This document shows positions 2,989 to 25,778 of a stretch of DNA of 64,000 nt, piece after piece. The stretch is from positions 14,602 to 78,601 of the forward strand of contig JBFWOK010000005.1 in assembly GCA_050250555.1 (NCBI GenBank), written 5' to 3'. The position numbers were made by a program, and so were the translations under genes. Under the pieces are notes generated by a model, which had not been told where the DNA came from, did not search any database, and saw only the letters and a program-made list of their open reading frames with translations. Each line of letters begins with the position of its first letter. The first letter of the stretch is position 1. The stretch comes from Limisphaerales bacterium (GTDB taxonomy: Bacteria > Verrucomicrobiota > Verrucomicrobiia > Limisphaerales > CAIMTB01).

Positions 2989-3009
2989 GATGGTGATGGT
3001 GATGGTGAT
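2986..3009. repeat. hexanucleotide microsatellite (GATGGT)n
   Basis: gatgatggtgatggtgatggtgat sits immediately upstream of the kinase start. It reads as His8 on the opposite strand, which explains spurious ORF 2837..3049. Confidence 0.8.
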
Positions 3010-3030
3010 TGTCGCGCGAATCCTGAACCC

Positions 3031-5932: not shown

Positions 5933-5962
5933 TGTAACCCGGGTCGGCGCTTCTTTCAGGAT
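5933..5962 (+). promoter_or_regulatory. bipartite motif TGTAACC-N14-TTTCAGGAT (candidate ECF-dependent promoter, copy B)
   Basis: Boxes and spacing are identical to copy A. The motif ends 122 nt upstream of ATG 6084, which opens the CIA30-like/acyltransferase/cupin gene string. Confidence 0.4.
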
Positions 5963-6083
5963 AGGGAGGAGAAACGGAGAAACCTCCGAACCGCCGAAGA
6001 GAAGTACCACCAACGTGACCCACCAGGCGCCCACGCCTCCTCAGTCGGACCGTGGCCGCCGAAACGACGGACGACCCTATCTC

Positions 6084-6731: not shown

Positions 6732-6768
6732 ACCCTCGCTTCAGTACTACCCCAAAAGACGCGCCACC

Positions 6769-8055: not shown

Positions 8056-8095
8056 CGCAGCGCAAAGAGATGGATGATCGGTTGCCAGCCGTGGG

Positions 8096-8593: not shown

Positions 8594-8611
8594 TCCCGGG
8601 CGGGGACGGGT

Positions 8612-10375
8612 TCAGGGCTGAGTGGCCCGGTAGTAGAACGGGAAGGACGATGGCGGCGTGGGATCCTCCGCCGTGCCGTTGCCGGTGGCGTCCAGCGTGA
8701 CGGACGACGCATTCGACCAATTCGCGTTCGAACCGACCTGACCGCTTCGCTGAATGGTGTAGCGCGCCCCTGGAGTTCCGGAGATGTCGAAGGTGGGCTT
8801 CCCTCCCGGCGAAAGGCGCGGGTTCGAAAACCGCGCGGGAGCCGCGGGGGGTTCGGTGCCGCCACCACCGCCGAGCGTGCCCAACGAGAACAGCGTGTTG
8901 CGAAGGATGGATCCGGAACCGCCCATCTTGGGGATCGTGTTGGTGGACTGGTAAAAGGCGCGGGAGAATATAATGTGGCCGGTGAGCAACGCGTTGGTGG
9001 GAAAGGTCTTCGCGGGAATCACGATCGACGTGGCGGTCACGGGCAACTCAATCGGAACGCACGGATCCGGCGCCGAAAATCGGATCCTGCCGCGATCGTC
9101 GAAGATCGAGAGGGAGAGGAAATCACCCGGTCCGGCCCCTGTGAAAGCGTTCCAAGTCAGCGTGAAGTCCGCGTCGGCCCGGATTTTCTGGCCCTCGTCG
9201 AAGTTGACGATCCTGGGGACCGGGGGCGCGCCAGCGGGAAGCGTCATCGCCGCGACTGATTCCGGAAGCGTGCCGAGGGTGAACCGCAGGGTGTAGACGC
9301 CCGGCGGTGTGGCGGCGTCCTGGGCCGCCTCCGTGTCGAAATAGCGGATGTCCTGGAGGAACTGCCCCGGACTCGCCGTGAAGGCAACGCGCGTCCCGTC
9401 GGGATAGGTGAGGCTACCGGCCGTTGCGACCGGACCCAGCGCCGCCCCCTGGACGGTCGCCCCGAAGTTGAAGGATTGGGTCTCCGTCGAGGGTACGGGG
9501 TCGCCGGCGGACTCTTGCCGAAAGCTGGAGGTCTTGAAGAGGGAGTAGCTGCCCCAGTCGGGGGGAGAAACCGGCGGGTTGCACGGAATGCCGGACCCGG
9601 TGGTGAATCCACCGGCGTAGGTCCCGGACGGTACGACCAATCCAGCCGGGTTCTGGAGTTTCGAAGTCGCGCTTGCGGGATTCAGCGCCCACCGGATCTC
9701 CGTGCTCACCGGAAGATCCCCCTCGTAGTCGCAAAGAAGGCTCCGGCTGTTGGCGGACCAGGAGTAGCGAAATTTGGCGGGATCAAGGCCCTGCCCCGTC
9801 CAAGCCACGGCATCGGCAACGGGCGTGTTGGTCTTCATGGCCTGGTCGAAGTTGAACGAGATCACCGTCGCCGGATCGACGCGAATGCTGTCGTTTGCCG
9901 GGCTGCTCGACACCAACACAGGCACGGTTCCCCCGACCCCGGTCGCGAACGTCCCGCTCACGGTGTCCAGCAGGACTCCGCCCATGCTCTTGAGGGGAAA
10001 CAAGGCTCCCGGCGGATTCAGCCGCCAGGTGAACGTGGCGTAGGGGAACTGGATGGCCGGCTTGAGCGTCAGGCTCTTCTTGTCCGAGCCCCAGGTCGCG
10101 ATCAACGACTGGTTGAACCCGGGTGCGACGACTTCGAAATTCCCGACCAGAGCGTTCGGAATGGTCTGAAGGAGGAACACCGACGTGTCCATTTCCTGGT
10201 CGAAGACGAACACCACCGAAGCGGTCGTCGGCACGAGCATCGCGCCGTTCGTCGGTGACACCGACGCCAGCGTGGGCGCGGATTGGGCACGGCCGCTCGG
10301 CGCCGTCGCAAAGAGGATGGCGATGCCCATCGCGAGTATTGCGAGGCGGGGGGCTATGGAGTTTGGGCTTTTCAT
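8612..10375 (-). CDS. secreted protein with repeated Ig-like (SbsA/Big_5-type) domains
   Basis: Trimmed to ATG 10375 (MKSPNSIAPRLAILAMGIAILFATAPSGRAQS signal peptide). Contains repeated modules of the form SPxNGAxxVP..xFxFDQxM. Confidence 0.6.
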   Translation of the reverse strand: MKSPNSIAPRLAILAMGIAILFATAPSGRAQSAPTLASVSPTNGAMLVPTTASVVFVFDQEMDTSVFLLQTIPNALVGNFEVVAPGFNQSLIATWGSDKKSLTLKPAIQFPYATFTWRLNPPGALFPLKSMGGVLLDTVSGTFATGVGGTVPVLVSSSPANDSIRVDPATVISFNFDQAMKTNTPVADAVAWTGQGLDPAKFRYSWSANSRSLLCDYEGDLPVSTEIRWALNPASATSKLQNPAGLVVPSGTYAGGFTTGSGIPCNPPVSPPDWGSYSLFKTSSFRQESAGDPVPSTETQSFNFGATVQGAALGPVATAGSLTYPDGTRVAFTASPGQFLQDIRYFDTEAAQDAATPPGVYTLRFTLGTLPESVAAMTLPAGAPPVPRIVNFDEGQKIRADADFTLTWNAFTGAGPGDFLSLSIFDDRGRIRFSAPDPCVPIELPVTATSIVIPAKTFPTNALLTGHIIFSRAFYQSTNTIPKMGGSGSILRNTLFSLGTLGGGGGTEPPAAPARFSNPRLSPGGKPTFDISGTPGARYTIQRSGQVGSNANWSNASSVTLDATGNGTAEDPTPPSSFPFYYRATQP

Positions 10376-10708
10376 TGCGGTTTCGGACCTGGGTGGGTAC
10401 GCGCCCCTCACCCGAGGCCGCGGCCGGAGCATCCCGGTCGGTTTTGGGATCGGTATTGGGCGGCGAGTGCCATAGCGCCGAAACCTAACCGCTCGCCCAT
10501 TGAACGGAAGCCGGATTCCGACCCGACCCAGAAAGAAGCCCGTCCCTTTGTACTCGGGTCCTTTGGAGAGTGCGGTGCTCCGCACCGCTTTGGTGGGGCT
10601 CGCCATGGCTCGGCGATCCGCGGCGACCTCGGAGGTCGGATGCCAGACACCGGTTGATCGGCGGTTACCGCGCCAAATCCGCCACGGGACTCGACCCCCG
10701 CTCCGTCG

Positions 10709-12016
10709 TCACACACCCTTCGGTGGCTTATTCATCAGTCCGGCGGACTCCAACTCCCCGGCCAGGTAGCGCTGGCGCCAGGCGTCCCGCGAGATTTTGC
10801 CCCGGGTATTCGCCGGGATCTTCTCAACCACCTTCCATTCCCGGGGAATCTGCCACGCGGGCAGCCCTTGAAGGAGATCCGCTCGAATCCGATCGAGATC
10901 GAGTCCGGACGCCGCGTCTCCCGAGGGCGCGACGATCGCGACGATGTGCTCGTTCCGGCCGGCGACCTGCTCGGGAACACCGAAGACAAGGCAGGCCGCG
11001 ACACCGGGAATCGCGCTCACCGCGCGCTCGATCGTTTCGGGAGCCACCTTGCGGCCGGCCACGTTGATGAGATCGGTCGCCCGGCCAAGCAGCGAGACGC
11101 CGGAATGCGAGACCTCGACAAGATCATGCGAGCGATAGCGTCCGTGACCGAGGTGCAGCGTGTCGGGAGGCACATAGCCGAGCCCGACCGACGCGCCGCG
11201 CACCTCGAGGCAACCGTCCGCGCCGACCGAAAGATCGACGCCTCGCATCGGATGTCCCACCCACGTCTCGGAGGACCTGGGGACGCACCCGGAATCGTAG
11301 GCGATTCCACCGCATTCGGTGGAGCCATAGAAGTTGTGAATCTTGAGGCCATGGCGTTCGTGGATGGCGCGCTCCAGGGAGACGGCGAGCGGCGCGCCCG
11401 CGGAGATGGCGAGCCGGATGTTGGCGGGGATGGAACCGGCTTCGAACCACTGCCTCCAGAGGACGGGGACCGCGGGCAGCGTGACCTCGGGCCGGGTTCG
11501 GCAGGCGCGGCGGAGCGCTTCCGGGAGTCTGCTCTCGGCGACCACGAGCGGGATGCCATGAAGCAGGAGTGGAAGCACGAGATTCGAGTACCCATACGAA
11601 TGGGCCAGGGAGATGACCGCGACGTTGGGCCAGCCTGGCCGGAGGCCCATGGTCTCGACGATCTGGTCGGCATCGGCGGCCAGCTGGGCGGCGGTGAAAG
11701 CGACCATCCGGGAAACCCCTGTCGATGCGGAGGTGAGCTTCAGGTGGACGCATTCGCGAGGGATTTCGGGGATCGAGCCGGCGGTCTGATCGGCGTCGAG
11801 CGGACAGACGATCCGGCCGTGCCGCCAGGCCCGGAGGACATCCAGCACGAACTCGGCGCCGTTGCCGGCGGGGTGGACCACGCGTTGCGGGAGCGGGGAC
11901 GAATCGGCTTCGCGTTCGAGGTCGGCGAAGGTCCAGGAGCGCGCGGTATGGACATCCAGGATGGCGGGCGCGGTCCGCCAAGACCGCGCGACTTGAAGCC
12001 ACCGCTCGTACAGCAT
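10709..12016 (-). CDS. short AMP-dependent adenylate-forming enzyme (aryl/acyl-ACP or -CoA ligase-like)
   Basis: Trimmed to ATG 12016. ANL motifs LTSASTGVSR, FYGSTECGG, GRATDLINVAGRKVAPETIE and terminal GKISR. About 435 aa, similar in size to aryl-polyene starter ligases. Confidence 0.8.
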   Translation of the reverse strand: MLYERWLQVARSWRTAPAILDVHTARSWTFADLEREADSSPLPQRVVHPAGNGAEFVLDVLRAWRHGRIVCPLDADQTAGSIPEIPRECVHLKLTSASTGVSRMVAFTAAQLAADADQIVETMGLRPGWPNVAVISLAHSYGYSNLVLPLLLHGIPLVVAESRLPEALRRACRTRPEVTLPAVPVLWRQWFEAGSIPANIRLAISAGAPLAVSLERAIHERHGLKIHNFYGSTECGGIAYDSGCVPRSSETWVGHPMRGVDLSVGADGCLEVRGASVGLGYVPPDTLHLGHGRYRSHDLVEVSHSGVSLLGRATDLINVAGRKVAPETIERAVSAIPGVAACLVFGVPEQVAGRNEHIVAIVAPSGDAASGLDLDRIRADLLQGLPAWQIPREWKVVEKIPANTRGKISRDAWRQRYLAGELESAGLMNKPPKGV

Positions 12017-12059
12017 TGAGTGCTTCGTAGGTGATGCGTAGCGTCGGGGCAAGCGGCTT

Positions 12060-12902
12060 GTGTTTCGAGCATCCTCATTCTCATTCTCATTCTCGTTCCC
12101 AACGGTGATCCCGCCATGGATCGGGGCGCTGGGGCTGCTGCTCCTCGCGGCTTCAGGGTGCGCGCCTCGTCAGCGGGCCGCGCTCGAAACGCCCCTCTCG
12201 TTCACTTTCGGGAGCGACACCTTCGCCTTCCCGAACCAGACCTACTGGAGTTATCGCGAGAATCCCGAGACCGGAGTCATGGAGCATGAGACCCGGGTTC
12301 CGCGGGCGGACTACGCCCACCGCTGCTTCGTCCTGGTGCGGGCGGCCAAGGAATTCAAGCTGCACGCCGCCTTTCGACCAGAGCTTCCGCGCGCCTCGGC
12401 CGAATCCTATCGCCGGAAAGTGCGCGCCGTGGTCCGGCGATCGTCCCGCCGGGCGGCGTCGGAGGCCGATCGGATTGAGTTCCCGGGGTACGCGGATCTG
12501 AAAGCCTTCAGCGCCGAGCATCGCGCAATTCTCACGGAGGAGTTGGGCGGATCCTGGCAGAGCTACGCGCAGCGGGGGCACTGGCGGATTCTGTTTCCCT
12601 TTTCGAGACGCCACCAGGCGGGCGTCGCGGAGCGGCTCGAGGAGAAACTGGCGAACGGCGCGATCGCGGCGGTGCATGTCATCCGCTTTCCCGATCTCAC
12701 CATCAACCACGCGGTCCTCGCGTACGCGGCGCGCTCCGGGACCGATTCGATCCGAATCATGGCGTACGATCCGAACAACGCGGAGGAACCCATTGAACTC
12801 CTGTTCGACCGCGCGACCGGCCGGTTCACCATGCCGCGAACGCCATACTTCCTCGGGGGAGAAGTCGACGCCTACGAAGTCTATTGCTCGGCTTGGTACT
12901 GA
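12060..12902 (+). CDS. hypothetical lipoprotein with possible Cys/His/Asp (transglutaminase-like) triad
   Basis: Lipobox LLLLAASGC. Start is uncertain (GTG 12060 or GTG 12105). Candidate triad residues lie in HRCFVLVRAAKEF, INHAVLAY and AYDPNN. Confidence 0.55.
   Translation: MFRASSFSFSFSFPTVIPPWIGALGLLLLAASGCAPRQRAALETPLSFTFGSDTFAFPNQTYWSYRENPETGVMEHETRVPRADYAHRCFVLVRAAKEFKLHAAFRPELPRASAESYRRKVRAVVRRSSRRAASEADRIEFPGYADLKAFSAEHRAILTEELGGSWQSYAQRGHWRILFPFSRRHQAGVAERLEEKLANGAIAAVHVIRFPDLTINHAVLAYAARSGTDSIRIMAYDPNNAEEPIELLFDRATGRFTMPRTPYFLGGEVDAYEVYCSAWY
12075..12098. repeat. hexanucleotide microsatellite (TCATTC)3 plus one degenerate unit
   Basis: tcattctcattctcattctcgttc. On the minus strand it reads (GAATGA)n, 60-80 nt upstream of the ligase start at 12016. 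Confidence 0.75.
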
Positions 12903-13240
12903 GTCGCGCCGGTACCGGACCCGGCGGGGCTGGCCGGGTCGGCGGAGCCGATGGGGCCGGTTCCAAGGCCGGGACGAGCGCCCCGACGATAGAGCAATCC
13001 GAAGAACGCCGCTCCGCAGAGATTCACCCCAAGGGTGTACCCGAGCTTGTACGGCCGGCCCGAGTTGAAGGTGGCGTAAATGAACGTGTCGTGACCGAGG
13101 ACGAGTCCGGGAAACATGCACGGCATGGCGGCGCCATGAATCAATCCCGCGCCAAAGCCGGCCGGACGGGCACGGCGGGCCTCATGCCGGCTGATCGCGC
13201 CGGTCAACAGCCCGATCGCCGCCGCGACCCCGATTCCCAC
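12881..13240 (-). CDS. small hydrophobic membrane protein
   Basis: 119 aa with about 3 hydrophobic segments and high third-position G+C in this frame. Converges on the previous gene with a 22-bp overlap. Confidence 0.5.
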   Translation of the reverse strand: MGIGVAAAIGLLTGAISRHEARRARPAGFGAGLIHGAAMPCMFPGLVLGHDTFIYATFNSGRPYKLGYTLGVNLCGAAFFGLLYRRGARPGLGTGPIGSADPASPAGSGTGATQYQAEQ

Positions 13241-13347
13241 GAGGAGGCGAAGGGCAATTCTTGGGACGCGCCTGGAGGGTCGACGCCGGGGCGTGGTCGG
13301 GTGGCACGAAGCTTGTTCCTGGGATCGCGTTTGCGTAGGAGAAGACC

Positions 13348-14034
13348 ATGTTCCTGAGCCACCGGAGTCGCCAAGCCGAATGCTTTGACGAACCGGGACG
13401 CCCGCCCGCCGACATCGCGCGCGACTACGCGCAGCTTGGAAGGATCAACCGCCTCTTCCGTCATGCCGACCCGTTCACCCGCCGTCTGGCGCCAAGGGAA
13501 GTGGGGGAATCGTCCTGGACCCGAGCGGACGTGCTCGAAGTGGGAGCGGGCGACGGGCAATTGGCGGTCGAGTTGATGCAATGGGCGGATCGGCGCGGGT
13601 GGAAATGGGAGTTCACGTGCCTCGACCTGAACGCCACCGGGATCGAGCGGAACCCGATTCCGCGGAAACTCGTCGGCGACGCCACCAACCTGCCGTTCCC
13701 GGACGCGTCCTTCGACCTCGTGATCGCGTCGCAGATGACGCATCACCTGACCGACGACGGCGTGGTGGCGCATCTCCGGGAGGGCTGGCGGGTCGCGCGC
13801 CGGCGATTGATCGTGAGCGACCTGCATCGCAATCCGTTCCTGTACGGTCTTGTGCGGACGGTGACCCCATGGATGGGATTGGCGCCCCACCTGATCGAGG
13901 ACGGACTGATCTCGGTCCGACGCGGGTTCCGGGTTGGCGAACTCCGCGGGATGGGGCTCCGCGCGGGAATTCCGACCCCGCGCGTCACGGTCGAATTCGG
14001 CTGCCGCATCGTTCTCGACGCGGTGAAGGCCTAG
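13348..14034 (+). CDS. class I SAM-dependent methyltransferase
   Basis: Motif I VLEVGAGDGQLAVEL; post-I and motif II-like LDLN..DLVIASQMTHHL. Confidence 0.8.
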   Translation: MFLSHRSRQAECFDEPGRPPADIARDYAQLGRINRLFRHADPFTRRLAPREVGESSWTRADVLEVGAGDGQLAVELMQWADRRGWKWEFTCLDLNATGIERNPIPRKLVGDATNLPFPDASFDLVIASQMTHHLTDDGVVAHLREGWRVARRRLIVSDLHRNPFLYGLVRTVTPWMGLAPHLIEDGLISVRRGFRVGELRGMGLRAGIPTPRVTVEFGCRIVLDAVKA

Positions 14035-14070
14035 CGTTGGCGGGAAATGGGAGCGCGTCGGAGACGCGGC

Positions 14071-14865
14071 TCAATGGGGTTCCGTTCTCGAAATCCGCTC
14101 GGAACAGGCGGGCTCTTGCGACCTCGAGGGGGCGGGGACGGGGCGGACGGCGACGTGAATCCCGGAGGAACCAGGCTTTGACGTGGTGGCGCGGGCACGG
14201 ATGGCCCCCACGTACCAGCGGAGCCAGCGCAACGAATCCCGGATCGGGGCGATCTTGCTCGTCTCGACGCCGTACACCGATTGAACCGGAACAAACTCGA
14301 TCGACGCGCCAACGCGAACGCTCGCCACGATCATCTCCGATTCGACCTCGAACCTCCGCGACCCGAGATTCAGGCGTTGCCAGAGGTCGAGCCGGATGAG
14401 GCGGAATCCGCACTGGGAATCGGGAATCGCGCGGCCGACGAGGACCCCAATCCATCGGCTCAGCACCTGGTTGACGACGCGTCGGAGCCAAGGCATGCGG
14501 GGCGCGTTGGCGAACCGGTTCCCAATGATCAACCCGGCGCCGGATTCGGAGGCGGCCGTCAGGAAGACGGGGATATCGTCGGCGGAATGCTGTCCGTCGC
14601 CATCGAGGCACAGCGCCCAAGCCGCTCCCATTTCGAGCGCGTGCGACAGGCCTGTCGCCAAAGCGGCGCCTTTGCCTCGCGGGCTGGGATGCTGGAGCAC
14701 GACAGCCCCCGCGGAAGCCGCCAGGGCCGCCGTCCCGTCGGTGGACCCGTCGTCGACGACGATCACCCGGCTGATGTGCCGGCGCGCGCCCTCGACGACG
14801 TCGCCGATATGACGCGCCTCGTTCAGACAGGGGATGACGGCGAGGCCGGCACCGTCGGTGTTCAC
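14071..14865 (-). CDS. glycosyltransferase family 2
   Basis: GT-A signature LAVIPCLNEARHI..VIVVDDGSTDGT..LDGDGQH. GTG start. Confidence 0.8.
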   Translation of the reverse strand: MNTDGAGLAVIPCLNEARHIGDVVEGARRHISRVIVVDDGSTDGTAALAASAGAVVLQHPSPRGKGAALATGLSHALEMGAAWALCLDGDGQHSADDIPVFLTAASESGAGLIIGNRFANAPRMPWLRRVVNQVLSRWIGVLVGRAIPDSQCGFRLIRLDLWQRLNLGSRRFEVESEMIVASVRVGASIEFVPVQSVYGVETSKIAPIRDSLRWLRWYVGAIRARATTSKPGSSGIHVAVRPVPAPSRSQEPACSERISRTEPH

Positions 14866-14982
14866 GGCCCAAAACTACGGGTGTTGGGAACCCGAGGCGA
14901 GCGGCAGTTCCGGTGCCTGGGAGGCGGAAGGCGCATTTCGTCCACGGCTTTTGATTTGCCCCCTTCGGGATGGAACGGATTA

Positions 14983-16089
14983 ATGGGCTGGTTGAGTTCA
15001 TTCGACATTCAGCCACGCGACCAGGATTTGGACCTTCAGGGGCAGGCTCAGGACGGACTGCATGCCCGGGCGAGGACGGTGACCTCCGATGAATTCGGAC
15101 GTCGGGTGTTCGTGCGAGGGGTGGTCGAGGTTTCGAACTACTGCCGGGAGAACTGCGGCTATTGCGGGATGCGCCGCGACAACCGGGACCTGGCTCGGTT
15201 CCGCGTGGAGCCGGAACGGCTCGCGGAATTGCTGGTCGAGGCGCGGCCCGCGGCGATCACCGATCTCAACATCCAGACCGGTGAGGATCCGCGGGCGATG
15301 GACGAAGTCGTGCTTCCGCTGATCAGCCTTCTTCGCCGGCACACCTCGCTGGGAATCAGCGTCTGCCTCGGCACTTTGGACGCAGGCCGCTACAGGGCGC
15401 TTCGCGACTCGGGAGCGACGATCTACATCATGAAGTTCGAGATCTCCGATGCGGATCGATACAAGGAATTCCGGGCGCCGGGGACGCTCGAGGAGCGACT
15501 GCGTCACATTCGAATGCTGGCCGGCGACGGATGGCACGTGAGTTCCGGGTTCATTGCGGGACTGCCCGGGGAGACGGAGGCCCATCGCCTGAAGAACATC
15601 TCGCTGGCGGTGTCGTTGCCGTTGTCCGGATGCAGCGTGAGCCCGTTCATCCCCGGAGCGGAGACCTCGCTTTCGTCCGCGCCGCCAGGCGACGTCGAAC
15701 TGACTCTCAACTGCATGGCGTGGCTGCGGATTCTGCGACCGGACTGGGTGATCCCCGCCGTGAGCGCCCTGAATCTCTCCCAACCCGGGCTCGGCTACCG
15801 GCGAGGCCTGCGGGCGGGCGCGAATCTCGTCACCATGAACCTCACGCCGGAGGCTTTTCGCGGGGACTATCTCCTCTACACCCGCGACCGGTATGTCATG
15901 ACCGAGGAACGCGTGCTCACCGCGATCGCCAAGGAAGGACTCGAACCGTCGCCGGTCAGCCTCGCCGAACATTACGCCGCGAGGCCCCGGGTCTTGCCGG
16001 CCGCGGGTCCCGGGTTGGAAGCGGACGCCGGTCCTGGCGCTGGGTTGACCCCCGGGGCTTTGCCAGCGCCCGCGACCGGAATGGGCTGA
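14983..16089 (+). CDS. radical SAM enzyme, HydE/BioB/PylB-like
   Basis: Track ORF 14281..16089 trimmed to in-frame ATG 14983. The upstream part is antisense to the GT2 gene. Cluster motif NYCRENCGYCGMRR (CxxxCxxC) with a TIM-barrel-sized body. The Ala/Gly/Pro-rich tail overlaps the next gene. Confidence 0.8.
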   Translation: MGWLSSFDIQPRDQDLDLQGQAQDGLHARARTVTSDEFGRRVFVRGVVEVSNYCRENCGYCGMRRDNRDLARFRVEPERLAELLVEARPAAITDLNIQTGEDPRAMDEVVLPLISLLRRHTSLGISVCLGTLDAGRYRALRDSGATIYIMKFEISDADRYKEFRAPGTLEERLRHIRMLAGDGWHVSSGFIAGLPGETEAHRLKNISLAVSLPLSGCSVSPFIPGAETSLSSAPPGDVELTLNCMAWLRILRPDWVIPAVSALNLSQPGLGYRRGLRAGANLVTMNLTPEAFRGDYLLYTRDRYVMTEERVLTAIAKEGLEPSPVSLAEHYAARPRVLPAAGPGLEADAGPGAGLTPGALPAPATGMG

Positions 16090-17594
16090 GCCGCAACGGG
16101 GCCGCTCCGACGCCGTCCCCACGAGCGCCAGCCTTCGGTGAGTTCGAGCAGAAGCCAGCGGCCCAGCGCCGAAATCACGGGACGGGCACTCATCGGATCC
16201 AGGGAGAAACCACCGAACAGAAAGCGTTCACGGTCATTGCGTCGCCCGAAGGCGCCCCGCGCGCGCCGTGATTCCGCGATGGCGGCCAACCTCCGGTTGT
16301 AGGCGCGCATCAGATGGAACACGGGAACCGACGGGCCCGTGGAAAACACAGGCTGCAGGAGGGCGGCGTCACCCCGCTTGAAGGGCTGCGACACGATGCC
16401 GAGATAGTACAATCCGAGGTCGAGAACAAAGGCCAGGCGCATCAGTTCGAAGTCACCGAGGTACGCATACTTGTTTTCGTACACCGCTTCGAACCACCGG
16501 TCGTAGCTCCGACCGAACGTGGCGTTGTGCCGGGCGAGTACCGGCGCCAGTTCCTCGCCCCCAAGACCCCGACGGACGATGTCCACACCCGAAAACGTGG
16601 TGAACGCGAGCCAGTCCATTCCCGGACTGTAGAATGGGTCGATGAACCCCGCCGCGTCCCCAACCACGACGAACCCATCGCCCGCAATCACGCGACTGCG
16701 GTACGCGAGATGCCGCCGCCAGTGAACATCGCCTTCCTTCCACCGAGCCCGTGCGAGGATCTCGCGCGCCGCCGGATGTCGATCCAGGAAGGCCTTGAGG
16801 CGCTCGCCGACGGATCCGGTTTCGGGCCAGTGAACACGGCGCTCATCAAAGACGACGCCAACGCTCACGTCGCCGTCCTTCAGCGGAATGCACCAGGCCC
16901 ACCAACCGTCGCCCATGAAATGGTTGGTCGCGGTGCCCCGAATGCCCGGGCACGCCGCCGCCCACTCCGGATGTCGCTCCGCCAGTTCCCGGCCGTCCCA
17001 GTCGGCAACCCCTTCCCACCGGGCCCACGCCGACGAGGTGGGATGGCGGGTATTCGGCTCGAGCCAACCCTCCTGTCTCGCGAGAACGGCGCCGACTCCG
17101 GAGGCATCGACAACCCATCGCGCACGGACCTCCAACGCGACATCCTCGCGTCGGACCGTCACCGACTGAAGGCCGCCTGGTCTGAGATCCACGCGCGCGG
17201 CGCTGGCGGGACGCCAGACCGTCGCGCCCGCCGAAACGGCCAACTCGAGGACCTTCTCGTCGAGGACGGCGCGGTCGACCTGGTAGGCCGGAAGCCGAAC
17301 GAGGTATCGACCGCCGATCTCCGAACTGTCGGCCAGATTCGAAGTGCGCCCGTTCTGGAACCAGAACCGCATCCCCTGTTTGACCAAGTGGTGTTCGTTG
17401 AGGTGCCGCGTCAGACCCAGCACGCGCCCGAGGAAATAGCCGCTGATCTCGACGGTCGCCTCGCCGACCCGCCGCCGGAAAACGGGCGCCCGTTCAAGGA
17501 TCAGGACTCGAAGGTCGGGCTGTTGACGAAGCAACAGGACGGCCGCGGACGCGCCGGCGAGCGAGCCACCGAGGATGACGACATCCCAGGACAC
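15972..17594 (-). CDS. flavin-dependent halogenase-like FAD oxidoreductase
   Basis: FAD fold DVVILGGSLAGASAA; WAWCIP matches WxWxIP; GDAAGFIDPFYSPG matches FxxPxxSxG. Start is uncertain: GTG 17594 (MSWDVVILGG) is preferred and TTG 17666 is the alternative. The upstream 200+ codons of the track ORF are antisense to the KS gene. Confidence 0.75.
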   Translation of the reverse strand: MSWDVVILGGSLAGASAAVLLLRQQPDLRVLILERAPVFRRRVGEATVEISGYFLGRVLGLTRHLNEHHLVKQGMRFWFQNGRTSNLADSSEIGGRYLVRLPAYQVDRAVLDEKVLELAVSAGATVWRPASAARVDLRPGGLQSVTVRREDVALEVRARWVVDASGVGAVLARQEGWLEPNTRHPTSSAWARWEGVADWDGRELAERHPEWAAACPGIRGTATNHFMGDGWWAWCIPLKDGDVSVGVVFDERRVHWPETGSVGERLKAFLDRHPAAREILARARWKEGDVHWRRHLAYRSRVIAGDGFVVVGDAAGFIDPFYSPGMDWLAFTTFSGVDIVRRGLGGEELAPVLARHNATFGRSYDRWFEAVYENKYAYLGDFELMRLAFVLDLGLYYLGIVSQPFKRGDAALLQPVFSTGPSVPVFHLMRAYNRRLAAIAESRRARGAFGRRNDRERFLFGGFSLDPMSARPVISALGRWLLLELTEGWRSWGRRRSGPVAAQPIPVAGAGKAPGVNPAPGPASASNPGPAAGKTRGLAA

Positions 17595-17702
17595 GTCGGT
17601 CTCGGGAGGAGGGCTCCCGGCGCTGGAAGATGCGGCGCTCAGGCGGCGGAAGGATGGACGCGTCAAGGGGTGGGTGGCAATCTTCGGACGCCGACCCTGC
17701 CT

Positions 17703-18965
17703 GTGCTCTTTCCGCTGCCCATTCCCCCAACCCACCCGCCTCGCGTCGTGATCACCGGCGGAGGGATCGTCACCGCCCTCGGTTGCGGATGGACCGTCAA
17801 CGCGGAGGGATTCCGGGAAGGCAACGTGGCGTTCGGTCCGGTGCGACTGTTCGACGCCAGCCGTCAGCGCACACGTCGCGCCGCCGAGGTGGTCCTTCCC
17901 GAGACCTTCGAACGCGGCGGCCTTTCGCCCCGGCGATTGACGCGGATGGATCGCGCGGGACGGCTCCTTCTCATGGCGGCGCGGGAAGCCGCGGCCCAGG
18001 CGGATCTCGCAAGGGGGCCGTTCATCGAGCACGAAACCCTTCCCGTGGTTCTCGCCACGACCAGCGCCGGGATGAACCGCGGTCAGGAGTTCTTCCGCGC
18101 CGGCGTGACGTCCACGGCGAGCCGCCGCGGCCAGGCGACCCGCGTGTCGGACTATTTTGTCTGCCGCCAGACGCGGGACCTCGCGGACGACCTCGGGTGG
18201 CACGGGCCGGTGACGGTCATCGCGAACGCGTGCGCGTCGGGCGCCAACGCGGTGGGCCACGCCTGGGAATGGCTGCGCTCCGGTCGCGGACGGCGAGCCA
18301 TCGCGGGTGGCTACGACGCCCTCAGCGAACTGGTCTTCTCCGGATTCGACGCGCTCCAGGCACTGTCACCCACGGTGTGCCGACCGTTCGACAGGGATCG
18401 GGACGGCCTCGGACTGGGCGAAGGTGCCGCCGTGCTGGTGCTGGAAACGCTGGAGTCGGCAAGGGAACGGGGCGCAACGATCCGCGCGGAATTGATCGGC
18501 TATGGATGCTCCACCGACGTGCATCACCTGACCCAACCGCATCCGCAGGGCGTCGCCGCGGTCGCGAGCATGACCGAGGCTGCGCGAGCAGCCGGAATCA
18601 GCCCCGATGCAGTCGGCTACATCAACGCGCACGGAACCGGAACACCCCTGAACGACTCTTCCGAGGCGATCGCGATCCGAACCTGGGCCGGATCCCACGT
18701 GGACCGGCTTCCGGTCAGTTCGACGAAATCGTCCGTCGGCCATCTCCTGGGCGCGGCGGGAGCGGTCGAAGCCGCGGTTTGCGTGATGGCTTTGCAGGGC
18801 CGCTGGCTTCCCCCGACCACCACCCACCGCGAACCCGACCCCGAATGCCGATTCCCCGTGGTCACGGTTCCTACTTCCGCGCCCGACCTCGAAGTCGCGC
18901 TTTCGAATTCATTCGGTTTCGGGGGATCCAACGCGACCCTCGCATTCCGGAGGTGGCGTGAGTGA
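17703..18965 (+). CDS. beta-ketoacyl-ACP synthase (KS, FabF-like)
   Basis: Cys-His-His triad in context: ANACASGANAVG, NAHGTGTPLND, SSVGHLLGAAG. GTG 17703 chosen as start; track ORF 16314..18965 is over-extended. Confidence 0.85.
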   Translation: MLFPLPIPPTHPPRVVITGGGIVTALGCGWTVNAEGFREGNVAFGPVRLFDASRQRTRRAAEVVLPETFERGGLSPRRLTRMDRAGRLLLMAAREAAAQADLARGPFIEHETLPVVLATTSAGMNRGQEFFRAGVTSTASRRGQATRVSDYFVCRQTRDLADDLGWHGPVTVIANACASGANAVGHAWEWLRSGRGRRAIAGGYDALSELVFSGFDALQALSPTVCRPFDRDRDGLGLGEGAAVLVLETLESARERGATIRAELIGYGCSTDVHHLTQPHPQGVAAVASMTEAARAAGISPDAVGYINAHGTGTPLNDSSEAIAIRTWAGSHVDRLPVSSTKSSVGHLLGAAGAVEAAVCVMALQGRWLPPTTTHREPDPECRFPVVTVPTSAPDLEVALSNSFGFGGSNATLAFRRWRE

Positions 18966-20076
18966 CATCGTGGTCACCGGGCTGGGAGCCGTGTCGCCCG
19001 CGGGTTGGGGAGTTGAAGCGCTCATCGACGCGCTTCGAAAAGGAACCGCCCTGCCGTCGACGACGATCCAGGGACCCAAAGCCGACCATCCACTGGCGTT
19101 GCGTCGGGTGCCGGCGCCGGAGACGCGTCCGGGTTTCCTCGCCCAACCGCGGCTCCGAAGATCCAGCCCCATCTCCCATTTCTGCGTCGCAGCCGCCGCG
19201 GAAGCCTTGGGTGGAATCCCGTCGGCGCCGTCGGAATCCGCCGACACCCTCCGGCTCGGGCTCGTTTTCTGCACGATGACGGGTTCGGTGGTCTACTCGC
19301 GGCGGTTTTACGAGGAGGTGCTTCGCGAACCGGTCACCGCGAGCCCCCTGCTTTTTCCCGAGACGGTCTACAACGCTCCCGCCAGCCACCTGGCCGCGGT
19401 CCTGGGAATCCGGGGTCGCGTGCACACCGAAGTGGGAGACGCGGGTTGCCTCCTGAAGGCCCTCGCCACGGCCGCGCTTTGGCTGAACCTCGGGGTCGTG
19501 GATCGTTGCCTGGTGGTGGCCTCCGAGGAAGCGGACTGGCTCGTCGGCGAGGGTCTGCTGCTGCTGAGCCGCACCGCGGTCGGCGCCGAAGGGGCCGCGG
19601 CGCTGGTGCTCGCCCGCGCCGGAGAGGTCCGCGGGCTCGCTCGACTCGACACGATCTCGGATGCCTTCCCGTACGGCGACCAGCGTCCTCCGGATCGCGC
19701 CATCGCGGAGGCTCGCGATCAGTTGGATCCAACCCGTTGGTTCGAAGGCGGGCGAAGACCGCTCCTGGTGGACGGAATCGGTGGCGGCGGAAGACTGGAA
19801 CGCGCGGAACGCGACGCGTGGAGGAGATGGACCGGTGACCGATGGTCCGTGAAGGCCGTCCTGGGCGAAGCCTGGACCGCGGGTGCGGGCTGGCAATGCG
19901 CCGCCGCGGTGGCCGCCGTCGCTCACGGAGATGGCGGAGATGGCAACGCCGACGAGGGATCCCGGGCTTCAACCGAGACGACTTTCGACAGGGCGGTGGT
20001 GAGCGTGGTCGGCACCCAGGAGAACGCCGTCGCGGCGGTGTTCACCCGGTGCGAAGAATTGGGGGGATCGGAATGA
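18958..20076 (+). CDS. KS-like protein lacking the active-site Cys (chain-length-factor-like partner)
   Basis: Thiolase-fold N-terminus IVVTGLGAVSPAGWG, but the position aligned with the KS Cys reads FCTMTGSV. GTG start overlaps the KS stop by 8 bp. Confidence 0.7.
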   Translation: MSDIVVTGLGAVSPAGWGVEALIDALRKGTALPSTTIQGPKADHPLALRRVPAPETRPGFLAQPRLRRSSPISHFCVAAAAEALGGIPSAPSESADTLRLGLVFCTMTGSVVYSRRFYEEVLREPVTASPLLFPETVYNAPASHLAAVLGIRGRVHTEVGDAGCLLKALATAALWLNLGVVDRCLVVASEEADWLVGEGLLLLSRTAVGAEGAAALVLARAGEVRGLARLDTISDAFPYGDQRPPDRAIAEARDQLDPTRWFEGGRRPLLVDGIGGGGRLERAERDAWRRWTGDRWSVKAVLGEAWTAGAGWQCAAAVAAVAHGDGGDGNADEGSRASTETTFDRAVVSVVGTQENAVAAVFTRCEELGGSE

Positions 20077-20801
20077 AACGGGTCATCGTTGTGACAGGCG
20101 GCAACGGAGGTTTGGGCCAGGCGATCGCCAGTGCGTTTCTGGCGGAGGCGGACACTGGAACCGTGGTTTTGAACGTCAATCGCCACCGTGACCGCGCCGA
20201 CGCGCTCGCCGATTCGAGCGAGGGCCGATGCCGGGTGGAGCCGTGGGACGTGACCCAGGCCTCGGAGTGGAAACGGTCGGTGGCCGCGGTGCTCGAACGC
20301 CATGGCCAAATCGACGTGCTGGTGAACAACGCGGGGAATCACGAGGACGGCCTGCTCGCGACGCTTCCGATCGAGGCGTGGGATCGCGTCCTGGCGTTGA
20401 ACCTCGACGGGGTGTTTCACGGCTGCCAGGCGGTGATGCCCGCGATGATCAGCCAGCGAAGCGGCCGCATCGTGAACATCGCTTCGCTGAGCGCCCTCCT
20501 GCCCCCCGCCGGACAGGCGAACTACGCGGCCGCCAAAGCCGGCGTCCTCGCGCTGACGCGTTCGTTGGCGAAGGAGGTGGCCCGCATCGGGATCACGGTG
20601 AACGCGGTCTGCCCCGGGTACATCGAAACGGACGCGCTCGCCGGACTCGATGAGGCGGCGAAACGCTCCGCGCTGGCCCAGATTCCCGCCCGACGCTTCG
20701 GTCGACCCGACGAAGTCGCCGCGGCCGTCCGGTTTCTCGCTTGTTCCGACGCCTCCTATATCACAGGGTCCGTCCTCAAAATCGACGGCGGAATTCTGTG
20801 A
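20073..20801 (+). CDS. 3-oxoacyl-ACP reductase (FabG-type SDR)
   Basis: Trimmed to ATG 20073 (ATGA overlap with the previous stop). Motifs TGGNGGLGQAIA, NNAG, S..YAAAKAG. Confidence 0.85.
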   Translation: MKRVIVVTGGNGGLGQAIASAFLAEADTGTVVLNVNRHRDRADALADSSEGRCRVEPWDVTQASEWKRSVAAVLERHGQIDVLVNNAGNHEDGLLATLPIEAWDRVLALNLDGVFHGCQAVMPAMISQRSGRIVNIASLSALLPPAGQANYAAAKAGVLALTRSLAKEVARIGITVNAVCPGYIETDALAGLDEAAKRSALAQIPARRFGRPDEVAAAVRFLACSDASYITGSVLKIDGGIL

Positions 20802-20808
20802 TGCTGTG

Positions 20809-21120
20809 ATGTCCCACGAACTCGAACTCGAAGCAGGAAATCTCAGGCGGCAACTCAAGGAACTCATGGTCGAGACCCTGATGCTGCAAGTGACACCCGC
20901 CGAGATCGGGGACGATCAACCCCTTTTCGGCCCCGAAAGCCTCGGACTCGATTCCGTCGATGCGCTCCAACTCGTGGTGGCGCTGGAAAAGGGCTTCGGG
21001 TTCAGGATCGCCGATTCCGCCGCCGCGCGGGAAATCCTGCGAAGCGTCGCGACGATCGCCCAGGCGCTCGAGAAACACCGCGATCCCGGTTCCAGCATTC
21101 ATCAGCCTGGAACAGCCTAG
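20809..21120 (+). CDS. acyl carrier protein
   Basis: 103 aa from ATG 20809. Phosphopantetheine attachment site LGLDSVDALQLV. Confidence 0.8.
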   Translation: MSHELELEAGNLRRQLKELMVETLMLQVTPAEIGDDQPLFGPESLGLDSVDALQLVVALEKGFGFRIADSAAAREILRSVATIAQALEKHRDPGSSIHQPGTA

Positions 21121-22889: not shown

Positions 22890-25778
22890 CTACTCCGCCG
22901 TGACGGCGACCAGGAAAGGTTCCGTCTGAACCGAAGCCCAAGCGAAATCCAGCGTCCGGATTTCGACATTCGGACGGGGATTGGTCCAGGTGATCTTGTA
23001 CAGGCGCTTTCGCAACCCCAGGGAACGGGCGGATTCGTTGGATCCGTCCCACGCAATGGACATGGCCGCGGGAACCTCGTCGCTTGCGGAGGCCGTCCAG
23101 TCGGTGATCGTCCGCTCCAGCACCAGGGGGACCTCCTCGGACCCGCCATCGACGTAGTTGAGAATGTAACGTCCGACCTGGGTGCCAGGCGGATCGATTC
23201 CCCACGCGGCCCCCTGCAGGAAATGCAGTGCCACGCACTTCATTCCGATCGGGATGCCGCGGATCCTCCGCGGATAGCCGTGGAGCGAACCCAATTGGAG
23301 GATGCCGCGGATATCGAAGGGAACGCCCGCGAGGGTTCGGACGCCGGAGGGCAGTTCGCGAAGACTGTTGTCATTGTCGCCGGGTGATCCGCCCCAGTTG
23401 TCGTCGAGCGACGCCACGTAGTAGCCGGTCAAGTCGATCAATCGACGCAGTGTGTCGGCGGCTCTGGGAGGAACACGCGAGGGATCGCGCGGGGGAAGGG
23501 TGGCGGAGTAGGAAGGAACCGAGCTGTTGAACAGGCGTTCGATCTCACGAGGACTCGCCGCGTCCCAGAGGTGGATCTCGCCTCGGCGACCTCCGATCAG
23601 CGTCGAACCATCCGGCGAAAAACGGACAAACTCCGCCCCGGATCGAGGCAGGAGCGTCGCCAGTCGACGTTCGGTCGCGACGTTCCAAAGCGATACGCCT
23701 CCGTCGGCGCACGCGAGGGTCTGGCCGTCCTTGGAGAAAGCCATCCAGACGGGAAGGTCCGAGAAGAACCCATGCAGCGGCTTGCCGGAGTCGACGTCGT
23801 AGATCCGGATTTGACGGAAGTTGCCGGCCGCGACAAGCCGTCCGTCTGGGGAAAACGCAACGGGGGTCGAGCTCCCCCTTTTCTTGACGATCTGCTGCCG
23901 ATCCAAGCGTTGGAACCACAACTCGGACTCCAGCGTGATGGCGAGCACCCGGTTGTCGGGCGAAAAGGCGAGGCTCCAGACCCGTTGGTTCGCGGGGCTC
24001 AGTTCGCGGACGGAGAGTCCGTCGTCGACGCTCCTCAGTCGAAGCTTGCCGGCCGGATCGCCGGTTGCGAGCCATCGTCCATCCGTCGAGAGGCAGGCCG
24101 CGCTCACGATCTCATTGGTGGTTTCCGGGGACCACGCGCGCAGGCGCGATCCGGATCGGACATCCCAGAATTCCAGTCCTCCGAACGGGCCGGCTTCGAG
24201 GGGAAGTGGAGTCGGAATGGCGGCGGTGATGAGGATTGAACCGTCCTCCGAGAAGCCGAGTGGGTTCAGGCCCGCCGGCAGGCGGAGAACGACTTCACGG
24301 CGGCTTCGGTCCCAAAGATTCACCAAACCTCGGGCGTCGGCGTAGGCGACCAAGGACGAGTCGGGTGAGAAGACGGGAGGCGTCTGCGCGCCGACCACGG
24401 GTTCGACGGGCAGGTCGGTTTCCACGATCGGCGGCGGCGAATTCGTTGAAAGGCGATCGGCATGGGTTTCGATCCAGCTCAAACAACGTTTGGCGAAGAA
24501 CCACCATTCCCATCCGCGAAAGTCCGGTTCGCCCGGGCTTGGTTCATAGGCGAGCAGTTGATCCACGGCACGTCCGGTGTTGCCCAGGTCCAAGGCCTGT
24601 TGAATGCCGAGCATGTCGGTGGCGTAAAGTTGGTGGCGCGCGGTCAGGGCGCTGGCCTCCGCGCGTTCACGGGAAGCCTCGGCGCGCCGCCATTGCCATG
24701 TGATACCTGCGAAACCGAGCAGCCCAAGGACTCCGGCAAGGAAAGCGAGCCCGGCGAGCGCAGGCTTGCGCTGAATCCATCGGATGCACCGCTCGGTCGG
24801 GCCCGCGGGCCGGGCGAGCGTCGGCTCGCCGCGAAGGAAGCATTGAAGATCTTCGGAGAATGCCGAAGCCGAGGCGTACCTATTCCGTTCGTTCTTGGCC
24901 AGACATCGGAGGCAGACACTCGCAAGGTCGACAGGAACCTCGGCGTTCAGAAGCCGCGGAGAGACGGGTTCTTGTTCCACGACCTGACGGAGCGTTTCGC
25001 TCACGCTGGCTCCGGCGAACGGCGGTCGCCCGGTCAGAAGGTGGTAGAGGAGTGCTCCCAACGCATAGATGTCGGCGGCTGGTCCCAAGCTCTTGTGCCC
25101 CGCCGCTTGTTCCGGAGGCATGTAGCCGGGAGTCCCCAGCACCTGTCCGGTGAGAGTAAGGCTGCTCCCCTCGCCCAGCGGGCGCGCCAACCCGAAGTCG
25201 GTCACACAGGCGTTGCCGTCCGCATCGATCAGGACGTTGGACGGCTTGAGGTCCCGATGAAGGATGCCCCGCGCGTGCGCGTGCCGCACCGCATCGGCAA
25301 TCTGAACAGCCAGCAAGGCAGCCTCGCGGGCGGGTAAGGGACCGTTCCGGGTCCGTTCGGCCAGATTTCCGCCCTCGACATAGTCCATCGTGAAGTACGG
25401 CTGACCCTCGTCCTCGCCGACTTGGTGGATGGCAACGATGCGCGGATGGTCGAGCTTCGCGATCGCTTCCGCCTCGGACCGAAACCGCCGGCGTTCCTCG
25501 GCGCTGGCGAGGACCTGGTCACGCAGCACTTTGACCGCCACCTCACGATCAAGGCTTCGCTGTCGGGCCCGGTAAACAACGCCCATGCCACCGCGCGCAA
25601 TCTCTTCGAGCAAATCGTAGTCTCCGAGACGACGAAGCGGTGTCGCGGCTGGATCTTCAGAGCTGCTCGGGACGCCCCCCAGGATCAGACCCGCGAGGCA
25701 GCGTGGACACGGGCCGTCGGTGGTTTCCGTGCCGCACCTCGGGCACCGACCGTCCGCTGGATTCGCTTGGCGGGTCAT
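22890..25778 (-). CDS. Ser/Thr protein kinase with zinc ribbon, TM segment, WD40 beta-propeller and an uncharacterised C-terminal domain
   Basis: CPRCGTETTDGPCPRC; kinase motifs GGMGVVYRA, VAVK, HRDLKPSN, DFG, MPPEQ. One TM segment (ALAGLAFLAGVLGLLGFAGI) is followed by WD40-like repeats. The last ~200 aa have no motif I recognise. Confidence 0.85.
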   Translation of the reverse strand: MTRQANPADGRCPRCGTETTDGPCPRCLAGLILGGVPSSSEDPAATPLRRLGDYDLLEEIARGGMGVVYRARQRSLDREVAVKVLRDQVLASAEERRRFRSEAEAIAKLDHPRIVAIHQVGEDEGQPYFTMDYVEGGNLAERTRNGPLPAREAALLAVQIADAVRHAHARGILHRDLKPSNVLIDADGNACVTDFGLARPLGEGSSLTLTGQVLGTPGYMPPEQAAGHKSLGPAADIYALGALLYHLLTGRPPFAGASVSETLRQVVEQEPVSPRLLNAEVPVDLASVCLRCLAKNERNRYASASAFSEDLQCFLRGEPTLARPAGPTERCIRWIQRKPALAGLAFLAGVLGLLGFAGITWQWRRAEASRERAEASALTARHQLYATDMLGIQQALDLGNTGRAVDQLLAYEPSPGEPDFRGWEWWFFAKRCLSWIETHADRLSTNSPPPIVETDLPVEPVVGAQTPPVFSPDSSLVAYADARGLVNLWDRSRREVVLRLPAGLNPLGFSEDGSILITAAIPTPLPLEAGPFGGLEFWDVRSGSRLRAWSPETTNEIVSAACLSTDGRWLATGDPAGKLRLRSVDDGLSVRELSPANQRVWSLAFSPDNRVLAITLESELWFQRLDRQQIVKKRGSSTPVAFSPDGRLVAAGNFRQIRIYDVDSGKPLHGFFSDLPVWMAFSKDGQTLACADGGVSLWNVATERRLATLLPRSGAEFVRFSPDGSTLIGGRRGEIHLWDAASPREIERLFNSSVPSYSATLPPRDPSRVPPRAADTLRRLIDLTGYYVASLDDNWGGSPGDNDNSLRELPSGVRTLAGVPFDIRGILQLGSLHGYPRRIRGIPIGMKCVALHFLQGAAWGIDPPGTQVGRYILNYVDGGSEEVPLVLERTITDWTASASDEVPAAMSIAWDGSNESARSLGLRKRLYKITWTNPRPNVEIRTLDFAWASVQTEPFLVAVTAE

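Follow-up and report, generated by a model that had tools for sequence, protein, structure and literature searches.

The gene clusters for aryl polyenes, xanthomonadins, and flexirubins have a common set of parts: a beta-ketoacyl-acyl carrier protein (ACP) synthase (KS) with an inactive partner, a 3-oxoacyl-ACP reductase (KR), a hot-dog 3-hydroxyacyl-ACP dehydratase (DH), an ACP, an adenylating enzyme, a GT2 glycosyltransferase (GT2), a lipid-A-type acyltransferase, an MMPL protein, and a LolA-like protein. A halogenase and a methyltransferase (MT) also occur in xanthomonadin clusters. Here, we describe a cluster assembled from such parts in a metagenome-assembled genome (MAG) of a Limisphaerales bacterium (Verrucomicrobiota). 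The DNA analyzed, referred to here as the window, is a stretch of 64,000 nucleotides (assembly GCA_050250555.1, contig JBFWOK010000005.1, positions 14,602 to 78,601), and coordinates below are positions within it. In addition to the shared parts, the cluster contains a gene for a radical S-adenosylmethionine (SAM) enzyme of the HydE/PylB/BioB TIM-barrel group (14983 to 16089, +), which is an integral, clade-defining core gene of the pathway and belongs to a distinct Verrucomicrobial clade. The protein that it encodes is identical to one from a Limisphaerales MAG.

A second system with comparable parts is anammox cluster I (KustE3603-3608), a candidate ladderane cluster that encodes an ACP, FabZ, FabF2, a mutated FabF, a flavoprotein, and a radical SAM enzyme and whose FabF2 and dead FabF paralogue form a heterodimer resembling a KS and chain length factor (CLF) pair (10.64898/2026.05.19.726425). 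Nearer to the present organism, clusters of the arylpolyene and ladderane types have already been recorded for Pedosphaerales in antiSMASH surveys (PMC8692599), and arylpolyene clusters have been counted in other Verrucomicrobia (PMC9865893). The suggestion of an earlier reading, made from the sequence only, that the product might be undescribed for the phylum has to be narrowed to that extent; we found no account of the present architecture and no literature linking a HydE-type radical SAM enzyme to aryl-polyene, flexirubin, or xanthomonadin clusters. The same reading had placed the radical SAM enzyme outside the canonical aryl-polyene set, and there it stays. Celluxanthene arylpolyene alkaloids also involve no radical SAM enzyme.

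Gene order and linkage of the radical SAM gene

Dozens of species-level genomes share these genes in one conserved order, so the arrangement is far from chance. As mapped by tblastn and by families of open reading frames (ORFs), the recurrent order in relatives begins on the left with a halogenase (HAL2), a small lipoprotein (x18), a fusion of MMPL with a lipid-A-type acyltransferase, a LolA-like protein, a FabZ-like DH, an AMP-ligase (−), a lipoprotein, and a small membrane protein (f4, −). It continues with the MT, the GT2 (−), the radical SAM gene, in some loci another halogenase (HAL1, −) and a further protein (f6, −), and then the KS, a dead KS, the KR, and the ACP. In Pedosphaera parvula and another genome, the order is MT, GT2, radical SAM, halogenase, an ~200-amino-acid protein, KS, KS-like protein, KR, ACP, and a second halogenase.

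The genes in the window are the right-hand arm of this ~16-gene pathway, which is conserved in Limisphaerales/Pedosphaerales-type Verrucomicrobiota. At the left edge, only the last ~41 codons of the LolA-like carrier are present (1 to 123, +; 46% identity to the C terminus of the LolA-like proteins of relatives by tblastn), and the remainder lies to the left of the window. A public contig (L090) with 99.98% identity to window positions 1 to 5944 supplies the missing left arm: upstream of the DH it carries a 418-amino-acid halogenase (HAL2), x18, an MMPL::Lip_A_acyltrans protein of 1103 amino acids, and the full LolA gene, which ends at the left edge of the window. The assignment of the locus to type II fatty acid synthase/polyketide synthase-like clusters with an aryl-polyene/xanthomonadin parts list is reinforced by L090, which is upstream DNA of the same organism, and by the relatives; they add typical export and anchoring genes of this family (the LolA-like protein and the MMPL::acyltransferase) and the second halogenase.

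The gene models were derived from Pfam, NCBIfam, and direct reading of the translations, and by these means every gene and motif named in the sequence-only reading was found where it had been placed. However, the contiguous gene set described there lacked two conserved genes, those for a lipoprotein-like protein (12060 to 12902, +) and for f4 (12881 to 13240, −), and it is not one codirectional string: the cluster genes are divided between the two strands into about five transcription units. The DH (123 to 599, +) is separated in the window from the AMP-ligase by a block of ~10 kb (649 to 10606), whereas in relatives the two genes abut, which makes the DH a cluster member, as had been proposed. 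The block encodes a DUF1579 protein (−), an RDD-domain Ser/Thr kinase, a CIA30-like protein, an Acyl_transf_3 membrane acyltransferase, a cupin, and a 664-amino-acid Big_5 secreted protein (−); it is not conserved in relatives and is unrelated to the cluster. Since the DH and AMP-ligase genes of relatives are either adjacent or parted by other variable genes, this spot looks like an insertion hot spot.

When one genome per species was scanned, the radical SAM clade turned up in 328 species-level genomes, and the best 80 are essentially all Verrucomicrobiota; orthologues number in the hundreds at 60 to 78% identity in Verrucomicrobia, P. parvula included. For the analysis of gene neighborhoods, 83 radical SAM loci were fetched, and families were tallied by two routes, namely, tblastn of the window proteins (83 loci) and clustering of all ORFs of these loci plus the window (84 sources). 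The GT2 gene is the commonest neighbor of the radical SAM gene (48/83 loci). Of the 46 loci whose flanks were long enough for the distance to the KS to be scored, 30 have a KS no more than 7 kb downstream of the radical SAM gene. In 11 loci, the KS directly follows the radical SAM gene on the same strand, with a gap of 7 bp in L025 and L034. Single operons are also found: L028 unites a PlsC-type acyltransferase, GT2, deacetylase, MT, radical SAM, KS, CLF, and ACP, and L048 unites the radical SAM gene, two B12-type radical SAM genes, a fused KS/CLF ORF, x18, and MMPL-acyltransferase. The radical SAM gene is thus tied most often to the GT2 and the KS operon rather than to unrelated neighbors. 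Although the sequence-only reading had treated the radical SAM enzyme as the unexpected element, it is the core gene, and HAL1 is the optional one.

In L048 (11016 to 13732) and L082 (6851 to 9879), a pair of B12-binding radical SAM genes stands between the HydE-like radical SAM gene and the KS. These are the only two of the loci with B12-type radical SAM genes.

A radical SAM clade distinct from HydE, PylB, and BioB

The radical SAM enzyme of the window has the same full TIM-barrel fold group as HydE (Thermotoga maritima; PDB 3ciw/3iiz), with a CX3CX2C motif (CRENCGYC at residue 54) and a GED-type SAM motif, and no B12-binding domain was found in it by Pfam. HydE is its best-scoring characterized relative (151 bits in the PDB). 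However, the scores lie below the curated cutoffs for HydE (TIGR03956; 178.6 bits, cutoff of 254.6), PylB (103.9 bits, cutoff of 348.2), and BioB (61.5 bits, cutoff of 225). The clade is sharply bounded: among 1.8 billion representative proteins, full-length members have at least 54% identity, and the next relatives have at most 42%.

In HydE, M224 and M291 hold Fe(I) intermediates and K309 relays the radical (PMC11826987). These three residues align with G216, T284, and D302 of the window enzyme, of which G216 and T284 are invariant in the clade and D302 is nearly so. Sub-cutoff scores and the missing HydE residues rule out an identity as HydE, PylB, or BioB, so that of the HydE/BioB-type label given earlier the overall similarity to HydE stands and the specific assignment does not. 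The surroundings also differ from those of a hydrogenase maturase; no HydG, HydF, or [FeFe]-hydrogenase was recognized among the scanned window genes or the annotated neighbor families of the 83 loci, a search in which many low-count families were unannotated and from which whole genomes lay outside.

Full-length clade members with at least 57% identity share three further invariant cysteines beyond the CX3CX2C motif, namely, C128, C217, and C244. The corresponding HydE residues are S, V, and M, and among the closest relatives outside the clade, C128 is the only one of the three that is common. Within the barrel, C217 neighbors the site that M224 occupies in HydE. This pattern would make it reasonable to infer that C128, C217, and C244 form an auxiliary metal site. 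Of the E. coli BioB cluster ligands (Cys97/Cys128/Cys188/Arg260), only the position equivalent to BioB C128 appears, on inspection of the BioB sequence by eye, to be Cys in the window enzyme.

Some relatives at 31 to 40% identity are fused to class I methyltransferases (P0134, P0152, P0161, and P0196) or to AMP-binding enzymes (P0160 and P0213), and a Burkholderia relative adjoins a short AMP-binding gene in a mini-cluster. In the contexts retrieved for these relatives (L085 to L088), the methyltransferase fusions lie next to Liv-type (branched-chain amino acid) ABC transporters, and the Omnitrophota fusions with adenylating enzymes lie next to a small carrier-like ORF, to which L086 adds a flanking MBOAT gene and a GDSL-like gene in a Dlt-like arrangement. 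These fusions and adjacencies tie the branch functionally to adenylating enzymes and methyltransferases, both of which are present in the cluster. The contexts of these outgroup enzymes (Omnitrophota Dlt-like loci, ABC transporters, the Burkholderia mini-cluster, and uninformative short contigs) pointed to no single function. The fused HydE-like radical SAM proteins look like an uncharacterized enzyme family in their own right.

Condensing pair, reductase, dehydratase, and ACP

The KS (17748 to 18965, +; GTG at 17703 is an alternative start) has the motifs ACASG, HGTGT, and GHLLG, and its Cys-His-His triad is intact in all orthologues. Its KS-like, CLF-like partner (18958 to 20076, +) matches the ketoacyl-synt N-terminal domain only weakly. 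The partner has A, G, and E at the three catalytic positions, and Cys, His, and His are unconserved in every orthologue. The gene for the partner opens with GTG, in an 8-nt overlap with the KS stop (GTGAGTGA), and the start of the KR (20073 to 20801, +) overlaps the stop of the partner in turn (ATGA); both junctions are as first described. Judged by these residues and overlaps, the partner is a catalytically dead protein translationally coupled to the KS.

Against the NCBIfam FabF model (TIGR03150), the KS scores 341.7 bits, below the cutoff of 493.75. Its PDB matches are Thermus FabF (264 bits), 9s5h_B (248 bits), Iga11 (200 bits), and 7f27/7f28 (154 to 165 bits), and both Thermus and Synechocystis FabF outscore 9s5h_B. 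The entry 9s5h, a two-chain 3-oxoacyl-ACP synthase, is probably the anammox KS/dead-KS heterodimer, and 7f27/7f28 are probably Acinetobacter baumannii aryl-polyene KS structures. The match of the partner to 9s5h_C is marginal (E = 0.019). On these similarities, the condensing pair seems to have been recruited separately from FabF, in the manner of anammox cluster I.

The KR is a FabG-type enzyme that matches NCBIfam 3oxo_ACP_reduc with 251 bits and FlxB with 215 bits (FabG cutoff of 297.75). The DH is FabZ/ApeI-like (Pfam FabA, 64.8 bits) and scores 86.6 bits against NCBIfam FabZ, under the cutoff of 113. For the ApeI-like Pfam family PF22818, a precomputed table lists a match to the DH, but our own scan gave none even at E = 10. 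The discrete ACP (20809 to 21120, +) has a PP-binding domain with the motif LGLDSVD and matches NCBIfam PRK09184 with 50 bits. In the cluster genes of the window, the L090 arm, and the annotated conserved neighbor families, we found no enoyl reductase. A KR and a DH unaccompanied by an enoyl reductase fit a polyene product.

Presumed starter ligase, putative tailoring enzymes, and envelope proteins

The AMP-ligase (10709 to 12016, −) is a short, ApeH-like adenylate-forming enzyme of 435 amino acids with Pfam AMP-binding and AMP-binding_C domains and the motifs TSASTG (residue 95), YGSTE (230), GRATD (311), and GKISR (406). Its best PDB matches, at ~60 to 67 bits, are aryl-acid and small-acid ligases, and it is presumed to be a starter acid:ACP ligase. 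The gene is always divergent from that of the lipoprotein-like protein at 12060 to 12902, whose translation shows a signal peptide and Cys. This lipoprotein, which has no Pfam, NCBIfam, or PDB match, was located by tblastn in 20 loci, beside the AMP-ligase; by ORF clustering, it is present in 21 of 84 sources. The adjacent f4 is a membrane protein of ~120 amino acids that forms a conserved family in 30/84 sources (ORF clustering), with the core PAGFGxGxxHGAxMP...YKLGYTxGVNxCG and no Pfam or NCBIfam match. The LolA-like protein of relatives has flexirubin LolA2 as its best NCBIfam match.

The MT (13348 to 14034, +) is a class I SAM-dependent enzyme (Methyltransf_11/25; VLEVGAGDG) that matches NCBIfam PRK06202 with 118 bits, under the cutoff, and is syntenic in 26 loci by tblastn. 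The GT2 (14071 to 14865, −; Pfam Glycos_transf_2) is of the polyprenyl-phosphate-sugar synthase type, with sub-cutoff matches of ~106 to 108 bits to NCBIfam AglJ/PpgS. In a sublineage represented by L027, L028 (6658 to 9101), and L049, another GT2 takes the place of the usual one, with a polysaccharide deacetylase alongside it and, in two of the three loci (L027 and L028), a PlsC-type acyltransferase as well. The layout of deacetylase and acyltransferase in L028 is reminiscent of sugar N-deacetylation followed by N-acylation.

HAL1 (15972 to 17594, −; Pfam Trp_halogenase) is a flavin-dependent halogenase-like enzyme with the motifs WAWCIP and FIDPFYSPG. Its best NCBIfam match is CmlS, and its best PDB matches are CmlS, CndH, and PltA. 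A Lys aligns with the catalytic K76 of CndH, so that the halogenase signature recognized earlier is genuine; the flavin adenine dinucleotide (FAD) motif is a variant, GGSLAG. Orthologues keep the Lys, WxWxI(P/A/Q), and FxDPxYSPG and also have a variant FAD motif. A geranylgeranyl reductase was considered for HAL1 and ruled out, since the score is 77 against a cutoff of 158.8, halogenases score best, and the Lys is kept. HAL1 was found in 31 of the 83 loci by tblastn and is accordingly accessory. HAL2 of relatives has GGGPGG, WFWLIP, and FMDPIFSAG, and its L090 copy scores 81.8 bits against Pfam Trp_halogenase. The source organism thus has two flavoenzymes with halogenase signatures, for which a halogenating role is predicted from these motifs.

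HAL1 and the radical SAM gene are convergent, with 118 nt shared between their 3' ends (15972 to 16089). Both proteins end in low-complexity tails rich in Pro, Ala, and Gly, and in P. parvula the two genes do not overlap. The G+C content of the window is 60 to 69%, which gives rise to many long spurious ORFs; those at 15972 to 18260 (−) and 16314 to 18965 (+), in DNA of 66% G+C, are partly spurious antisense read-through. A secreted, family-less protein of ~196 to 226 amino acids (f6) lies between HAL1 (or GT2) and the KS or radical SAM gene in 25 loci (for example, L001, 12663 to 13343, and L051, 9241 to 9831) and is absent from the window.

Proposed pathway and alternatives

With moderate confidence, we propose that the pathway builds a polyunsaturated acyl chain, which ends up anchored in the outer membrane in the form of a glycolipid, following an aryl-polyene-type logic. 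The short ApeH-like ligase would adenylate a starter acid and load it onto the ACP, and the KS/dead-KS heterodimer, KR, and DH would then iterate without enoyl reduction to give a conjugated polyene. The MT and the halogenase or halogenases may decorate this polyene, which the GT2 and the lipid-A-type acyltransferase domain would join to a sugar-lipid carrier and the MMPL and LolA-like proteins would deliver to the outer membrane.

The radical SAM step is the weakest of the proposed mechanism. The enzyme might make or remodel a small acid for the ligase or might act on an ACP-bound early intermediate, perhaps with use of the extra three-Cys metal site, an assignment that we offer tentatively. 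The enzyme has lost the Fe-binding methionines of HydE and gained three invariant barrel cysteines. Radical chemistry of the C-C, C-S, or rearrangement type, with either the starter acid or the ACP-bound unsaturated chain as its substrate, is conceivable, although we would sooner doubt than assert it. With a radical SAM enzyme in the core of the cluster, the product is probably an undescribed membrane lipid.

Several observations weigh against the aryl-polyene-type proposal. No sequence feature shows an aromatic starter, and the KS is nearer to FabF, and to 9s5h_B, than to ApeO or ApeR. E. coli Ape has two active KSs (ApeO and ApeR), two DHs, and two ACPs, whereas the window, L090, and the relatives have one of each. 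In the comparison with E. coli Ape, no thioesterase and no homologue of ApeN, ApeG, or ApeA was detected in the cluster, and the full-length dead KS partner has no similarity to ApeC that BLASTP or hhalign could detect. About one-third of the fully flanked loci lack a KS operon within 10 kb of the radical SAM gene, which is often accompanied there by GT2, f4, and MT; linkage of the radical SAM gene to the KS is frequent but not obligatory. Finally, the outgroup contexts differ from one another (Dlt-like or ABC transporter); they support work with an adenylating enzyme or a methyltransferase and no specific reaction.

The loci that have the module but no KS within 10 kb (L008, L011, L015, L031, L045, L055, and L069) raise the alternative of two independent modules, in which f4, MT, GT2, and the radical SAM gene would form a separate envelope or cofactor pathway, such as a polyprenyl-phosphate-linked sugar modification, that merely stands beside the KS/ACP operon. 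It would agree with the PpgS/AglJ polyprenyl-phosphate type of the GT2 and with the rank of that gene as the commonest radical SAM neighbor. We nevertheless consider it unlikely, because the radical SAM gene and the KS meet in same-strand 7-bp junctions (L025 and L034) and because single operons unite GT2, MT, radical SAM, KS, CLF, and ACP in L028 and radical SAM, KS/CLF, and MMPL-acyltransferase in L048. The GT2 also resembles ApeJ, an aryl-polyene pathway enzyme, and relatives of the radical SAM enzyme are fused to adenylating enzymes.

Less probable still is a ladderane-like or radical-cyclized lipid, for which the FabF-derived KS pair, FabZ-like DH, and ACP would make a polyunsaturated chain that the radical SAM enzyme cross-links or rearranges. 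Similar parts in anammox cluster I, from the sister phylum Planctomycetota, have been proposed for ladderanes (10.64898/2026.05.19.726425). The higher score of the KS against 9s5h_B than against 7f27/7f28 points in this direction, as do the two B12-type radical SAM genes of L048 and L082, but ordinary Thermus and Synechocystis FabF score higher than 9s5h_B, and the conserved radical SAM enzyme is of the HydE/PylB type and not cobalamin dependent. The cluster moreover has no phytoene desaturase homologue and bears an AMP-ligase, GT2, acyltransferase, MMPL, LolA, and halogenases of the aryl-polyene type. We know of no report of ladderanes from Verrucomicrobia. The ladderane analogy drawn in the sequence-only reading therefore holds for the resemblance of parts; it fails on the class of the radical SAM enzyme and on the export genes, which point to an aryl-polyene-like surface lipid.

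Housekeeping or auxiliary fatty acid synthesis genes (FabF, FabG, AcpP, and FabZ) with unrelated neighbors, suggested by FabF, FabG, and FabZ being the best matches of the KS, KR, and DH, were rejected as highly improbable, since all three proteins fall under the NCBIfam equivalog cutoffs given above, the KS is translationally coupled to a dead paralogue, the genes are conserved together with those for the AMP-ligase, halogenases, MMPL-acyltransferase, and LolA, and the usual fab neighbors (FabD, FabH, FabI, and PlsX) are absent. None of the refuting conditions set out in the sequence-only reading was borne out.

Limisphaerales and Pedosphaerales are abundant and mostly uncultured bacteria of soil and freshwater, and a surface lipid pathway conserved in over 300 species-level genomes is probably important to the biology of their envelope. 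The cluster provides a defined, testable context for a HydE-like radical SAM enzyme that is clearly not a hydrogenase maturase, and its reaction, once worked out, would give a function to an orphan branch of the BioB/HydE/PylB group. Experiments are feasible since the cultured P. parvula Ellin514 carries the cluster. If radical chemistry on the starter or chain were borne out, the product would be a structurally new class of halogenated, radical-modified polyene outer membrane lipid in an abundant order, and the enzyme would have the first non-hydrogenase function in the HydE branch, alongside adenylating enzymes.

Other genes in the window

Large Ser/Thr kinases are encoded at 2896 to 5709 and 22890 to 25778; one of the two contains RDD domains and the other WD40 repeats, and the second is followed by an extracytoplasmic function (ECF)-type sigma factor (25875 to 26855, −). 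A run of glycosyltransferase genes on the minus strand (38818 to 43788), consisting of a GT4 family/WecA-like gene and then three GT1-type genes, adjoins MoeA (37550 to 38821) and probably represents a locus for an envelope polysaccharide. A sigma-54 response regulator is encoded beyond it (46491 to 48461). Two PA14-domain proteins of ~950 amino acids are encoded at 28385 to 31249, where cytochrome c domains are also present, and at 53421 to 56309.

Comparison with known systems

Anammox cluster I and the present cluster both come from the Planctomycetes-Verrucomicrobia-Chlamydiae (PVC) superphylum and both have a FabF-derived KS/dead-KS pair, an ACP, FabZ, a flavoprotein, and a radical SAM enzyme. 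The radical SAM enzyme of anammox cluster I is cobalamin dependent, however, and its flavoprotein is a phytoene desaturase homologue; neither type is found in the present cluster. Anammox cluster I in turn lacks the AMP-ligase, GT2, halogenase, MMPL, and LolA genes, all of which are found here. The FabF-derived pair thus offers, from another PVC bacterium, a comparison point for the unsolved anammox ladderane cluster.

For the aryl-polyene family, the ape cluster of E. coli CFT073 (L084, 28727 to 43748) served as the protein comparison set (BLASTP and hhalign). The KS has 33% identity to ApeR and 36% to ApeO, the KR has 34% identity to ApeQ, and the ACP has 40% identity to ApeE. The GT2 has 31% identity to the N-terminal domain of ApeJ (residues 10 to 222), and the acyltransferase domain matches the C-terminal part of the same protein. 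The AMP-ligase aligns with ApeH over 294 columns with 98.7% hhalign probability (24% identity by BLASTP), and the DH matches ApeI with 85% probability; the LolA-like protein matches ApeL, and MMPL matches ApeM. The lipoprotein, f4, x18, f6, dead KS, and MT gave nothing at 50% hhalign probability or above against single E. coli Ape proteins, a comparison in which single-sequence targets limit sensitivity. Neither cluster has an enoyl reductase that we could find.

The cluster differs from E. coli Ape in the fusion of MMPL with the acyltransferase, in an MT from a family other than that of ApeB, and in the additional conserved lipoprotein, f4, x18, and f6, none of which has a family assignment. 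Judged from the encoded proteins, the parts list and the export logic are those of the aryl-polyene family, to which the present cluster adds an integral radical SAM enzyme of the HydE/PylB clade.

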